DNA of 39,682 bases from Escherichia coli (GCF_003334335.1 NZ_QOWQ01000040.1); one strand, 5' to 3'; shown: positions 1-34,480, counted from the stretch's first letter. The notes: generated by a model not told the origin, from the letters alone. A program made the numbers and translations.

Positions 1-102
1 GCTGAACTGTTGCTGGAAGACTACAAAGCCTCCCTGAAATATCTCAGCGATCACCCGAAACTGCAGGGTATTGCCCAGCAGAACAGCTTTAAACACACCT
101 GA
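1..102 (+). CDS. gadA: Glutamate decarboxylase A, 3' end only (5' end lies outside the window)
   Basis: Frame 1 is open from the window edge and translates [33 protein letters not shown], then TGA at 100-102; this matches the remembered GadA/GadB C-terminus. The gadX neighbour argues for gadA rather than gadB. Confidence 0.85.
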
Positions 103-120
103 TAACATAACGTTGTAAAA

Positions 121-170
121 ACCGAATGCCCAGCCTTTAAAAAAACAGCTGGGCATTCGGTTGCTTATTA
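121..170 (+). terminator. Candidate intrinsic terminator of gadA
   Basis: Perfect 14-bp inverted repeat accgaatgcccagc / gctgggcattcggt (121-134 and 148-161) with an A-rich loop, followed by a weak T-rich stretch, 19 nt after the gadA stop. Confidence 0.5.
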
Positions 171-471
171 ATCGCAATAATATATTGGCTGTCTATTCAT
201 CGTGTTGATAAGATATATGTTATATGAATGTTTATTAAATGTAGCGATTACCTTTAATGTCACGAAAAGGGATTATTTGCTTACTATTAATTTCCCTGCG
301 TTCTTAAACACGTTTTTGTATTATAAATCCAGTCATCCTGCCCGTAGAACATCACACATTATCATCCTGTTCTCCCGCTTCGTTTAAATTTATTTATCAA
401 TCAATTTGACTTAAGAGGGCGGCGTGCTACATTAATAAACAGTAATATGTTTATGTAATATTAAGTCAACT

Positions 472-30624: not shown

Positions 30625-32231
30625 ATGAAAGCAATTGACAATCAGATTAGAAACATCTCTTCAAGCCATCAAGATAAGCATTCAGATAAAGTTAACAGTC
30701 ATCAACACCATGGCAAGGTTGATAAAACACATCGTGCAAAGATAGTTGAATTTGATAAACTGGATAATGATTCGCAAATAGATAACGATTTTGGCCTGCA
30801 TATCATCTATTTCCTGCAACATGGTCACTGGAAGGTAAATGATCGTAGTCACCAGATGGAGAAAGTATGGTTTTATAATAGTGAACCTTCTATAGATATT
30901 CAAGAATATAATAGATTCGCCGACAATACTACTGATACGTTTATCTTTACAATTATACCAGACAATAACCATGTGTTAAAATTATCGTCTCCCATTACCG
31001 TTACTGTTGAGTGTAAGGGCGGTTATTATTTTATTAATTCCTCTGGAGATAAATCAGATATAATTTATAAAGTTGATGGGCTTTCTATCATAGCGAGAAA
31101 TTTCTTTACTCTTCTTAGTGGTAATTTCAAACCTGACTGGCGTTGGGATGTCTCTAAAGAGACGTTTACTAAGGAAAAGTTTGATAGCTATGTTAAATCT
31201 GTGTTTTCAAAAATAGACTTCTATAAACAGTGTGGTGTGATTAACCCACAAAATGCCAACACGGCTTATTTTGGCGATACAGATGGAAGAGTAGGCGCTG
31301 TACTTTATGCATTGCTCGTTTCAGGGCATATAGGCATCAGGGAAAAGGGTTGGAGTTTATTATGTGAATTATTAAAACACGAAGAGATGGCTTCATCTGC
31401 ATACAAACATAAAAATAATAAAGTGCTCTACGATTTATTAAATACGAGAGACATGATCTTGAATGAGTTGCATCAACATGTTTTTTTAAAGGACGATGCG
31501 ATAACCCCTTGTATCTTCCTTGGGGATCATACAGGCGATAGATTTAGTACTATTTTTGGTGATAAATATATCCTTACTTTGCTAAATTCTATGCGAAATA
31601 TGGAGGGTAATAAAGATAGCCGTATTAATAAAAATGTCGTCGTTCTGGCTGGAAATCATGAAATCAATTTTAATGGTAACTATACTGCACGACTAGCAAA
31701 TCATAAACTCTCTGCCGGTGATACGTATAACTTAATTAAAACGCTCGATGTTTGTAATTATGACTCAGAAAGGCAAGTTTTAACCAGTCATCACGGAATA
31801 ATAAGAGATGAAGAAAAAAATGTTATTGTCTCGGTGCTTTGCAGGTTCCATTTAATCAGATGAAAAATCCTACTGATCCTGAGGAATTAGCCAATATTTT
31901 TAATAAAAAACATAAAGAACACATAGATGATCCTCTATTCCATCTAATCCGAAGCAATACTTTGAAACCCACACCTGTATATGCTAATTATTTTGATAAC
32001 ACTACTGATTTCAGACCAGCACGTGAACGTATCTTCATATGTGGGGAGACACTCAAAGGTGAAGACCCCAGCAAATACATTAGACAAAAATATGGGCATC
32101 ATGGGCCCGGGGTAGATCATAATCAACAATTTGATAATGGTATTATGGGGCTAAATTCCCTGAAGGAAGCACGTGATAAAAATAATAAAATAATTTATTC
32201 CTCAGGGCTTAGTTGTTTTCAACCACATTAA
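30625..32231 (+). pseudogene. yhiL: DUF4049-family protein, paralog of yhiJ, split by a frameshift at an A7 tract
   Basis: ATG at 30625. Frame 1 reads up to a stop at 31861-31863; the reading that aligns with YhiJ continues in the -1 frame from about 31821 to 32231. The A7 run at 31814-31820 is the junction, and one extra A restores a continuous ORF of about 535 codons. Confidence 0.7.
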
Positions 32232-32492
32232 AACTCCATGAATACGGTGGTATGTCTTTTTAATCCTGCCAGTATTTCATAGGTTTTCTTAATCGATTGT
32301 AGAGGCATGTTCTGATGACGCCTCTACAATCTTTAGGGACTTTCTCTGCTATGAGATAAGAAATTTCATATTATGCTTTGAGGCTGAATGATTTGTGCAA
32401 AATATAATTATTTTCCCATCGAACATGAGGTGTATGTCATAAGATAAAATGTTAACTATGTATTCCTCGCGGTAAATAATATGAGGTAAAAT

Positions 32493-34115
32493 ATGAAAAT
32501 TGGAACTGTGGCAGGCACTAACGACAGTACAACGACAATCGCAACAAATGATATGGTGCAAGAGCATGTTACCAACTTCACTAAAGAACTGTTTGGGTAT
32601 ATTGCAAATGGTATAGGTGATGATATATCAAGTATTGCCAGGACAATGCTCGGTGAGGTTGTGGAAAAAATAGATGATTGGCAAATAGAACGGTTCCAAC
32701 AATCTATTCAAGATGACAAAATTTCATTTACCATACAAACGGATCATTCAGAAAAATATAGTATGCTATCGGGCATGCGTGCTCATATTCTACGTAGGAA
32801 TAATAATTATCAGTTTATTGTGACAATTAATAGCAAAAATTACGGTTGCTCTCTTGATAATACCGATGTTAATTGGTGCAGTATTGTTTATTTACTTAAT
32901 AATATGACAGTAAATGATAATGCTAATGATGTTGCAGTTACTGAGTCGTACAAACCCATCTGGAACTGGAAAATATCGCAATATAATGTATCTGATATTA
33001 AATTCGAAACAATGATAAAACCCCAGTTCGCTGACAGAATCTATTTCTCCAATTGTTTACCCGTTGATCCCACAAGTACCAGACCAACCTATTTTGGTGA
33101 TACCGATGGCTCAGTCGGTGCAGTTTTGTTCGCGCTTTTCGCAACGGGACATTTGGGAATCATGGCTGAAGGAGAAAATTTCCTTAGCCAGTTGCTTAAT
33201 ATAGAAGATGAAGTTCTCAACGTATTGCTAAGGGAGAACTTTAATGAGCAACTTAACACTAATGTTAATACAATAATCAGTATCCTGAACAGAAGAGACA
33301 TTATTTTAGAAAGTCTTCAGCCTTATTTAGTTATTAATAAAGACGCTGTGACGCCATGTACGTTTCTGGGCGACCAAACCGGCGATCGATTTAGCAATAT
33401 CTGTGGTGATCAATTTATCATCGATTTGTTAAAACGCATAATGAGTATCAATGAAAATGTTCATGTATTAGCTGGAAATCATGAAACGAATTGCAATGGT
33501 AACTATATGCAGAACTTCACGCGTATGAAACCACTCGATGAGGATACCTACTCTGGGATAAAAGATTATCCTGTATGTTTCTATGACCCCAAATACAAAA
33601 TAATGGCAAATCATCATGGGATAACTTTTGATGATCAGCGAAAACGTTACATTATAGGACCGATAACAGTCTCTATTGATGAAATGACCAATGCTCTCGA
33701 TCCGGTCGAATTAGCGGCAATTATCAATAAAAAGCATCATGCTATAATTAATGGCAAAAAGTTTAAAACTAGCCGGGCTATCTCTTGTCGATCCTTTAAT
33801 CGTTATTTTTCTGTTTCGACAGATTACAGACCTAAACTTGAAGCACTATTAGCATGTTCACAAATGTTAGGTATAAATCAAGTTGTTGCACATAACGGAA
33901 ATGGTGGAAGAGAACGCATAGGCGAAACGGGGACAGTTTTAGGTCTTAACGCCCGTGACAGTAAACATGCTGGAAGAATGTTCAGCATGCATAATTGCCA
34001 AATTAACCCTGGTGCAGGGCCTGAGATAACCACTCCCTGGAAGTCTTACCAGCATGAAAAAAACAGAAATGGACTTATGCCTTTGATTAGAAGGCGCACA
34101 ATGTTACAGCTCTGA
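32493..34115 (+). CDS. yhiJ: DUF4049-family protein with divergent metallophosphoesterase-like motifs
   Basis: 540-aa ORF (MKIGTVAGTNDSTTTIATNDMVQEHV...) matching remembered YhiJ; contains YFGDTDG, FLGDQTGDRF and LAGNHE, all conserved in yhiL. Confidence 0.88.
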   Translation: MKIGTVAGTNDSTTTIATNDMVQEHVTNFTKELFGYIANGIGDDISSIARTMLGEVVEKIDDWQIERFQQSIQDDKISFTIQTDHSEKYSMLSGMRAHILRRNNNYQFIVTINSKNYGCSLDNTDVNWCSIVYLLNNMTVNDNANDVAVTESYKPIWNWKISQYNVSDIKFETMIKPQFADRIYFSNCLPVDPTSTRPTYFGDTDGSVGAVLFALFATGHLGIMAEGENFLSQLLNIEDEVLNVLLRENFNEQLNTNVNTIISILNRRDIILESLQPYLVINKDAVTPCTFLGDQTGDRFSNICGDQFIIDLLKRIMSINENVHVLAGNHETNCNGNYMQNFTRMKPLDEDTYSGIKDYPVCFYDPKYKIMANHHGITFDDQRKRYIIGPITVSIDEMTNALDPVELAAIINKKHHAIINGKKFKTSRAISCRSFNRYFSVSTDYRPKLEALLACSQMLGINQVVAHNGNGGRERIGETGTVLGLNARDSKHAGRMFSMHNCQINPGAGPEITTPWKSYQHEKNRNGLMPLIRRRTMLQL

Positions 34116-34480
34116 ACCATAGACAACATGAATATTAATGTTACTATCTGGTTGAGACTGTTGATAAAACGTAAAAAGGAATGCTCTGTTCCTGCAACTG
34201 AACAGGCGTGAAACGCTATCCAACAGGATGGATACCGTTTTGTCAGCCAGTTTTATAGATCACACTTATGAGTATGCGTGTTTCATTTACGGCCAGGAAT
34301 GCTGATGATGACAACATTACTACCCGTTTTCACTAAGCCTTCCCCGTTGGCGCTCAATGCTCTGCGCGCTGGTCGTATTTGCCGTTTCCTTCTTATCCCG
34401 GATGGAAGAATCCGCTGAACGTCGTTCGGCGGCAGTTGTAACACGCGTCGTTTGCTTACAGGGATTATGGCGGGTCGATT

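Follow-up and report, generated by a model that had tools for sequence, protein, structure and literature searches.

AT-rich islets of differing age and population behaviour in a conserved enterobacterial backbone around the acid fitness island of Escherichia coli

We analysed a 39,682-nt stretch of the Escherichia coli chromosome (GCF_003334335.1 NZ_QOWQ01000040.1), here called the window and always taken at its full length, which carries genes of the acid fitness island, the orphan gene yhiS and the yhiM, yhiL and yhiJ genes. We interpret these as independent AT-rich insertions, made in Escherichia into a conserved backbone and silenced by H-NS and StpA, and we put the probability of this reading at about 0.85. 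Our comparisons themselves show the composition, the boundaries and how the blocks are distributed across taxa and populations; the evidence on H-NS binding and derepression is taken from the literature, and a foreign donor is what we infer. Under this scheme, the backbone yhhJ-rbbA-yhiI | yhiN-pitA-uspBA-dtpB-rsmJ-prlC-rlmJ-gor would have taken several such insertions in the Escherichia lineage at two junctions, one beyond gor and the other between yhiN and yhiI. The islets do not form one group: at least four classes are distinguished by age and population behaviour, namely the acid fitness island, yhiM, yhiL-yhiJ and yhiS.

By alignment the window matches MG1655 3,625,402-3,666,282 (reverse complement) at 99.96% identity, and the sole structural difference is an IS5 insertion sequence (IS) that interrupts yhiS in MG1655 and is missing here, leaving yhiS uninterrupted. 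Annotation transferred from MG1655 gives the order gadX, GadY, gadW, mdtF, mdtE, gadE, hdeD, hdeA, hdeB, yhiD, dctR, slp, yhiS, followed by arsC, arsB, arsR, agrB/agrA, dinQ, gor, rlmJ, prlC, rsmJ, dtpB, uspA, uspB and, last, pitA, yhiN, yhiM, yhiL (frameshifted), yhiJ, yhiY, yhiI, rbbA and yhhJ. Rfam matches comprise GadY, two AgrB-family small RNAs (sRNAs), ES205/GadF and ES036. Population counts below refer to 5426 complete E. coli genomes; the syntenic loci of other species (L numbers denote loci) were retrieved via DtpB, one genome per species, and the window proteins were mapped onto them.

Compositional mosaic of the window

An earlier note, made from the sequence alone, had described AT-rich acquired blocks interleaved with GC-normal core genes. 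The mosaic is real and far beyond chance. Recursive binomial-likelihood segmentation on GC, with a stringent stop, divides the window into 8 segments: 1-2820 (40.1% GC), 2821-7365 (53.3%), 7366-8615 (33.9%), 8616-12305 (42.9%), 12306-14350 (33.0%), 14351-30180 (51.7%), 30181-34335 (35.6%) and 34336-39682 (56.0%). The shuffled window yielded a single segment in 20 of 20 shuffles, and six evenly spaced 50-kb controls from MG1655 gave 1-4 segments each, with a lowest segment of 41.6% GC. Among 1-kb windows, 27% fall below 42% GC here, compared with 0.7% of the 1182 windows in a 300-kb K-12 background. Sliding-window GC and, for the five genes named below, the codon adaptation index (CAI) differ clearly from background, and the flat profile that the note had taken as contrary evidence was not seen.

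Could the mosaic be an impression left by AT-rich intergenic DNA, with coding sequence no different? Spacers are indeed AT-rich everywhere, for instance 16149-16201 at 32% GC and 27442-27672 at 41% GC, but the segments span whole genes and the per-gene values refute this explanation, which we consider virtually impossible. Coding GC is 33.8% for yhiS, 34.9% for yhiL, 37.5% for yhiJ, 33.0% for gadE and 41.0% for gadX, against a background mean of 52.2% (sd 2.9%); none of the five exceeds the 0.4th GC percentile of 253 background open reading frames (z = -3.9 to -6.6), and their CAI is low too when scored with a purpose-built reference of 28 highly expressed genes in background loci. GC at third codon positions (GC3) is 0.30-0.40 for the most AT-rich genes (yhiS, yhiL, yhiJ and gadE, coding GC 33-38%) versus a background mean of 0.559. 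Since both per-gene GC and GC3 are low, the signal sits in coding DNA and extends beyond the spacers. Tracts of at least 10 bases consisting only of A and T number 2.7-7.8 per kb where segments are AT-rich and 0.2-0.4 per kb where they are GC-normal, a 7-20 times higher density in the former, and 57 of 74 promoter-like hexamer pairs fall within the AT-rich 35% of the window.

The blocks drawn by eye in the note agree with these data to differing degrees. The yhiS block (12569 to about 14270) fits the computed cassette, which spans 12306-14350 by GC and 12439-14419 by genome comparison. The first block (1 to about 12400) is AT-rich in its gad, hde and slp parts, but it encloses mdtF and mdtE (2755-7050) at 53-55% GC. 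The third (about 28900 to 34250) has comparative edges at 28862-34250, but segmentation places yhiM (28862-30180) with the GC-normal DNA and leaves only 30181-34335 as AT-rich. Treating yhiM as AT-rich is not supported, as its GC of 47.1% lies at the 5th percentile (z = -1.7) and groups with the GC-normal segment at the strict threshold. The equation of GC-normal with core also fails: mdtEF lies inside the island, arsRBC is complete in only 4119 of the 5426 genomes, and GC-rich cargo occupies the yhiN junction in other Escherichia.

Insertion junctions and islet classes

The comparison across genomes supports the division into acquired blocks and backbone: the AT-rich blocks belong to the Escherichia lineage and the backbone is common to other Enterobacteriaceae. 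Citrobacter, Klebsiella, Salmonella, Enterobacter and Raoultella, among others, preserve the gene order yhiN-pitA-uspB-uspA-dtpB-rsmJ-prlC-rlmJ-gor, and at the syntenic loci of those genera there are no island genes after gor, no yhiS and no yhiM, yhiL or yhiJ. In the window this enterobacterial backbone spans 16556-28861 (agrB/agrA, dinQ, gor, rlmJ, prlC, rsmJ, dtpB, uspA, uspB, pitA, yhiN), and the control stretch gor-rlmJ-prlC was found in 5417 of the 5426 genomes. The claim that yhiS, yhiJ, yhiL and yhiM share one acquired class with the acid fitness island does not survive, as the island is near-universal, yhiS is a cassette of E. coli and Shigella, yhiL-yhiJ is present in 77% of genomes and yhiM exists as two old alleles. 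Although it abuts slp, yhiS is no island member: it is a separately bounded cassette, absent from Escherichia lineages that carry the island. The yhiM, yhiL and yhiJ genes lie 17 kb from the island, outside the slp-to-gadA cluster.

At the second junction the case for insertion is direct. In three Citrobacter genomes, among them C. amalonaticus and C. youngae, only about 136 bp separate yhhJ-rbbA-yhiI from yhiN, which marks everything between 28862 and about 34250 as inserted in the Escherichia lineage. It comprises two islets. The yhiM islet (28862-30252, minus strand) consists of a yhiN/yhiM spacer at 36% GC and yhiM itself (29190-30242), here the K-12-type allele. Two allele classes of yhiM exist, with at least 95% identity to the window in 4276 genomes and 60-90% in 1129 (about 79% versus 21%). 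The minor allele (L008:7433-8485), found in B2-type E. coli and E. whittamii, is 80% identical to the window in nucleotides, between flanks that are 96-98% identical, and has 43% GC in its B2 form. Synonymous divergence (dS) between the alleles is 1.41, with a ratio of nonsynonymous to synonymous divergence (dN/dS) of 0.044, and the flanking genes have dS of 0.05-0.15. The gene is absent from the Citrobacter junction; beyond Escherichia the next YhiM homologues have at most 61% identity, and the named ones, among many that are unnamed, come from alphaproteobacteria, betaproteobacteria and actinobacteria, with none named from other genera of Enterobacteriaceae. Because of this phyletic pattern, and not because of its GC content, yhiM is judged to be acquired.

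The neighbouring yhiL-yhiJ islet (30253-34250, plus strand, 35.6% GC) holds a frameshifted yhiL pseudogene (30625-32231) and yhiJ (32493-34115). Of the 5426 genomes, 4161 (77%) cover at least 80% of it, and in about 1250 all or the greater part is missing; B2-type E. coli, E. whittamii and Citrobacter do not have it. In those E. coli genomes without it that were examined, as in E. whittamii, yhiN is followed by yhiM, about 550 bp and yhiY. E. albertii carries a yhiL-like and yhiJ-like pair of 34-36% GC at the same site and no yhiM. With E. albertii lacking yhiM, and E. whittamii and B2 genomes lacking yhiL and yhiJ, yhiM and yhiL/yhiJ are separate acquisitions. Other lineages hold different cargo beside yhiN: a GC-rich type I secretion system (TolC/LssB/HlyD) in Escherichia sp. 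E1V33, and, in a divergent lineage that goes by the label E. coli E69, a cluster of OYE/SDR/AKR oxidoreductases accompanied by a LysR regulator. From the window and the genomes compared, including L012:1-5500, L013:1-5500, L093:6448-10815 and L033 at about 5369-5505, the junction shows at least five states: empty, as in Citrobacter, yhiM alone, yhiL/yhiJ alone, all three genes, as in K-12-type E. coli, and a type I secretion system or oxidoreductase cluster. From these gene orders, the yhiN|yhiI junction reads as a recurrent hotspot whose cargo is not always AT-rich.

What the yhiL-yhiJ islet might encode is suggested by its family. YhiJ belongs to Pfam DUF4049 (E = 1e-179), as does YhiL, an intact version of which is found in other strains with 86% identity to the frameshifted copy. 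Named YhiJ homologues, from a search of 5.8 billion protein clusters, come from Escherichia and Shigella only. The DUF4049 alignment retains invariant GDxDG, GDxxGDR and GNHE motifs, and YhiJ gives faint matches to Metallophos (E = 0.013), WipA_Phos (E = 0.031) and NCBIfam T4SS_Wip (E = 0.0023), all far below family thresholds. A likeness to the Legionella WipA-type and other calcineurin-like metallophosphatases lies in the motifs kept in DUF4049 and in these faint profile matches; however, the matches are sub-threshold and YhiJ has no match among PDB profiles, so that membership is not established. The AlphaFold model of YhiJ, built from a shallow alignment of Escherichia sequences only, has a predicted local distance difference test score (pLDDT) of 44 and is too poor for fold comparison. 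YhiJ and YhiL may be divergent metallophosphatases restricted to Escherichia.

The yhiS cassette (12439-14419, minus strand, 33% GC) consists of the orphan gene yhiS (12569-13792) and both of its AT-rich flanks. Three lineages have no such cassette: E69, where the slp-arsC gap is 273 bp, E1V33 and E. albertii. Their alignments break off at 12434-12438, a left breakpoint common to all three, and resume at 14420. The gene was found in 4327 of the 5426 genomes and is frequently IS-hit or truncated, as in the B2-type genome examined, where 12502-13413 is deleted. Every genome context of yhiS that was examined is E. coli or Shigella, and the named homologues among the 136 found in the same protein clusters, many of which are unnamed, are all from E. 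coli or Shigella, with 64-92% amino acid identity. In the closest strain, L091, slp, dctR and arsC have dS of 0-0.016 relative to the window, and yhiS differs at 22% of residues, with dS of 0.29 and dN/dS of 0.41. Between strains (the window, L091:3001-4224 and L092:6001-7233) the yhiS alleles differ at 22-35% of residues, with dS of 0.29-0.60 and dN/dS of 0.27-0.41; dS of a second allele is 0.56. The adjoining slp has dS of 0-0.03 in both strains, and against L092 dctR has dS of 0.12 and arsC 0.26. Sliding identity to L091 is 100% up to 12399, 79-90% over 12400-14400 and again 100% from 14500. Such a sharp divergent zone between near-identical flanks identifies yhiS as a bounded hypervariable cassette that appears to be exchanged through conserved flanks. 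At L091:1017-2421 an extra ArsR-like helix-turn-helix regulator and an ArsP_1 permease lie between arsC and yhiS, at the position of a repeat element described below, and we read these genes as another variable insert at the arsC/yhiS junction.

Two observations argue that yhiS encodes a real protein: its dN/dS stays under 1, and a reading frame of 407 codons has remained open in DNA of 34% GC. No Pfam, NCBIfam or PADLOC family was found for YhiS, and PADLOC likewise returned nothing for YhiJ, YhiL and YhiM; across these four proteins NCBIfam matched YhiJ alone, by the faint T4SS_Wip match. A Pfam AIPR_N match (E = 0.42) was treated as noise. Residues 203-254 bear a weak resemblance to pentapeptide repeats in a PDB profile search (2f3l, E = 0.0046), on which we do not rely. 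The AlphaFold model, from a shallow Escherichia-only alignment, has a pLDDT of 38 and is unusable. YhiS has neither a phage homologue (PHROGs was not searched) nor a genuine plasmid homologue.

The acid fitness island is itself composite, with GC-normal mdtEF embedded in AT-rich genes. Its first segment (1-2820, 40.1% GC) holds gadX (472-1296, plus strand), the GadY sRNA (1308-1421, minus strand; Rfam match of 150 bits) and gadW (1664-2392, plus strand), and both gadX and gadW lie at the 0.4th GC percentile. There follows the GC-normal insert (2821-7365, minus strand, 53.3% GC) with mdtF (2755-5868), mdtE (5893-7050) and the GadF/ES205 sRNA (7200-7271). The genes mdtF and mdtE are compositionally ordinary, at GC percentiles 59 and 82, and mdtEF was found in 5414 of the 5426 genomes. 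The next segment (7366-8615, minus strand, 33.9% GC) consists of gadE (7389-7916, z = -6.6) and its long upstream regulatory region, and with the yhiS cassette it is the most AT-rich of the window. The last (8616-12305, 42.9% GC) contains hdeD, hdeA, hdeB, yhiD, dctR and slp. The hdeA/hdeB pair (9542-10316) combines a GC3 of 0.36-0.39 and very low GC with CAI at the 89th and 66th percentile, and low GC need not mean a poor fit to the host translation system.

The gadE-slp stretch was found in 5423 of the 5426 genomes, always with at least 95% identity, and is contiguous in only 3178. In the remainder it is interrupted because a chu haem-uptake operon of about 9 kb sits in the 41-bp yhiD/dctR spacer (11028-11068), as in B2-type genomes (L010:3758-12710). 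The insertion is seen in the annotation of that locus and as an alignment break between 11032 and 11068; about 41% of the complete genomes have an island split in this way. The genes slp, dctR, yhiD, hdeBA and hdeD follow gor in E1V33, in the E69 lineage and in E. albertii, and among the loci compared only Escherichia species carry island genes at this place; since several lineages share it, the island dates to the genus level. The E1V33 version keeps a low GC of 38-45%. In 66% of genomes the gadE-slp stretch (7366-12305) matches the window at 99% identity or more; for the gor-prlC control (17432-21943) the share is 26%. Between Escherichia species gadE-slp diverges more than core genes do (84-88% versus 91-95% identity).

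The arsC, arsB and arsR genes (14421-16555, minus strand, 51-54% GC) are variably present. The matches with reduced coverage span arsC only, 24% of the E. coli genomes are without arsRB, and the B2-type genome examined keeps arsC alone, with 14908-16593 deleted. At the other end of the window lies GC-rich backbone (34251-39682, plus strand, 56% GC) with yhiY, yhiI, rbbA and yhhJ, which is 96.5% identical to the B2 genome.

The note had further stated that the block boundaries coincide with repetitive extragenic palindromic (REP) elements and hairpin terminators, and this applies to two of about seven. A fuzzy pattern search located two pairs of REP copies, or bacterial interspersed mosaic elements (BIMEs), at 14272-14371 and 25777-25874, and a weak copy at 39413-39440. 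The BIME at 14272-14371, two inverted REP copies, marks the right edge of the yhiS cassette and is the only REP on a compositional boundary. The other match is a modest hairpin with 12-nt arms, a 6-nt loop and a following T-run (34211-34240, plus strand) at the right edge of the yhiL-yhiJ islet. The remaining edges are bare, with no REP or strong hairpin at 2820, 7365, 8615, 12306-12438 or 28850, and the second BIME lies inside the GC-normal block: it is a polymorphic insertion between uspB and pitA (25754-25903, REP pair 25777-25874) that B2-type E. coli, E. whittamii, E69 and E1V33 do not carry. Between its two REP copies lies the Rfam match to the ES036 (CssrF) sRNA (25798-25838). The BIME at 14272-14371 is a repeated element with up to 22 matching places per genome, and together with 25769-25857 it makes up direct-repeat family D2. 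Terminator-like hairpins are not enriched over shuffles (28 versus 19.9 +/- 5.0 and 28 versus 22.4 +/- 4.4), and the strong ones fall inside blocks. A 30-nt inverted repeat (26 of 30 bases; 13992-14021 and 28911-28940) lies in the AT-rich spacers that flank the central GC-normal block. We rejected it as the mark of a bounded element, as it does not extend past 30 nt and is estimated to be at about chance level for a whole-window scan; it is probably due to chance or to a shared regulator site.

Proposed silencing by H-NS and competing explanations

The islets, rich in A/T tracts and promoter-like sites, would be preferred substrates for H-NS/StpA filaments and would thus be kept silent, with GadE, GadX, GadW, EvgA-YdeO and RpoS counter-silencing the acid-resistance genes. 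The published maps fit this scheme. Four of the 78 promoter islands in Table 1 of Panyukov and Ozoline (PLoS One 2013; PMC3661553) lie in the window, at yhiL, yhiL/yhiM, arsC/yhiS and insH11/slp; these four are associated with predicted horizontal transfer and are bound by H-NS in the chromatin immunoprecipitation (ChIP) sets of Grainger, Oshima and/or Kahramanoglou. In the genomic SELEX (systematic evolution of ligands by exponential enrichment) data of Shimada et al. (PMC3946193), HNS flags fall on yhiJ<yhiL, yhiL<>yhiM, yhiN<>pitA, insH11<>slp, hdeB<hdeA, gadW<>gadY and gadX<gadA, and yhiI<yhiJ and dinQ<>arsR carry none. A 2026 preprint reports H-NS cover over the island and strong binding of StpA at slp-dctR and yhiS (bioRxiv 10.64898/2026.02.10.705075). 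The gadE promoter, of gadE-mdtEF, is repressed by H-NS (PMC3708157), and derepression upon hns deletion is published for island genes and yhiM (PMC6604978, PMC3708157). Far from being uncharacterised, as the note had it, yhiM has already been described as an H-NS-repressed acid-resistance gene, activated by GadE, GadX and EvgA and encoding a membrane protein for export of gamma-aminobutyrate (GABA) (PMC6604978). For yhiS, yhiL and yhiJ we found no direct statement in the literature on hns derepression, co-regulation or a role in acid. The assignment to an H-NS-silenced xenogeneic class stands as far as the published H-NS/StpA maps and the Escherichia-only insertions go, but the islets are not one class. 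The high-affinity H-NS motif TCGATAAATT (at most 2 mismatches) is 2-4 times denser in the AT-rich segments and also high in mdtFE; as it does not discriminate, it was left unused.

Several observations weigh against acquisition from outside. No donor or vector was found for any islet. The window contains no tRNA and the intact yhiS no IS, and the collinear MG1655 annotation lists no integrase and no transposase other than that of the IS5 missing here. YhiS and YhiJ have no real plasmid or phage homologues, as the three plasmid matches are records of 4.8-4.9 Mb and probably mislabelled chromosomes. For the orphan yhiS a foreign origin is inseparable from extreme divergence or local gene birth. 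The low GC persists in E. albertii and E1V33 and is therefore maintained, which is not the fading signature of a donor, and the AT-richness of the islets may have arisen partly in place. Finally, as the cases of mdtEF and arsRB make clear, composition is no exact guide to origin.

How else might such a mosaic have come about? Weakly expressed, weakly constrained genes under H-NS cover could have drifted in place towards A and T through a GC-to-AT mutation bias, a process that could also accompany acquisition. Low GC would then result from silencing and relaxed selection and would not point to a foreign donor. The lack of yhiS homologues outside E. coli and Shigella and its raised dN/dS (0.27-0.41) are compatible with drift, as are the yhiL pseudogene here, the frequent IS hits and truncations of yhiS and the equally low GC of the E. 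albertii and E1V33 versions, which show no shift to the genome average; moreover, A/T enrichment after transfer has been proposed for promoter islands (PMC3661553). However, constrained and highly expressed genes are AT-rich too: hdeA combines 42.9% GC with CAI at the 89th percentile, gadE-slp stays at 95% identity or more throughout E. coli, and the B2-type yhiM has 43% GC in a gene with dN/dS of 0.044. In addition, the abrupt compositional steps coincide with presence/absence breakpoints. We consider drift a rather improbable account of the mosaic, and in-place enrichment may contribute because the low GC predates the split of the Escherichia species. Far less probable still is that the blocks are ancestral to Enterobacteriaceae and were repeatedly lost outside Escherichia. 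B2-type genomes did lose arsRB and most of yhiS, and the state of the yhiN/yhiI junction before the split is ambiguous, with E. albertii having just yhiL/yhiJ there and E. whittamii just yhiM. Yet under this history Citrobacter, Klebsiella, Salmonella, Enterobacter, Raoultella and others would each have lost the blocks independently and precisely, down to the 136-bp Citrobacter spacer; no named homologue of YhiM, YhiS or YhiJ was found in other enterobacterial genera, and the composition lies 5-6 standard deviations from that of native genes. A further suggestion, which we regard as doubtful, is that the small islets, instead of being inert remains of ancient transfers, are allelic cassettes held at two recombination hotspots under balancing or diversifying selection, for example through interaction with phage or host. 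Selection of this kind would fit because of the deep yhiS alleles in a fixed 2-kb cassette, the multi-state yhiN|yhiI junction and the yhiM dS of about 1.4.

Relation to known systems and implications

Independent insertion of H-NS-silenced islets into a conserved backbone, the reading we favour, can be set beside several known phenomena. Positions 1-12321 match the E. coli acid fitness island (slp to gadA) gene for gene, minus gadA, and share with it the AT-richness, the H-NS cover and the absence from the syntenic site in Salmonella and other genera (bioRxiv 10.1101/2024.06.10.598259); yhiS, yhiM and yhiL/yhiJ differ in lying outside the island and in their quite different population behaviour. 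As in the promoter islands of PMC3661553, promoter-like hexamer pairs crowd the AT-rich segments here; that work is a catalogue of K-12 sites only, and what the present comparisons add is the polymorphism in presence and absence, the divergence of alleles and the precise breakpoints. With classical genomic and pathogenicity islands the islets have in common an atypical GC, a restricted phyletic range and recurrent hotspots. Unlike them, the islets are only 1.4-4 kb long and are without tRNA, flanking direct repeats and, by the collinear MG1655 annotation, integrase or transposase. They appear to spread by homologous recombination in conserved flanks.

What does this imply for the reading of AT-rich DNA in E. 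coli? The view of the blocks as acquired and H-NS-silenced is essentially right and is already published for every named block. Caution is nevertheless needed, as GC alone misclassifies: mdtEF and arsRB look native, though the former is embedded in the island and the latter accessory, and yhiM looks nearly native though clearly acquired. GC content hides the differing ages and dynamics of the islets. As leads, rather than findings, work on orphan genes and hotspots may take up the hypervariability of yhiS within its sharp bounds, the two yhiM alleles of great age and the multi-state yhiN junction.

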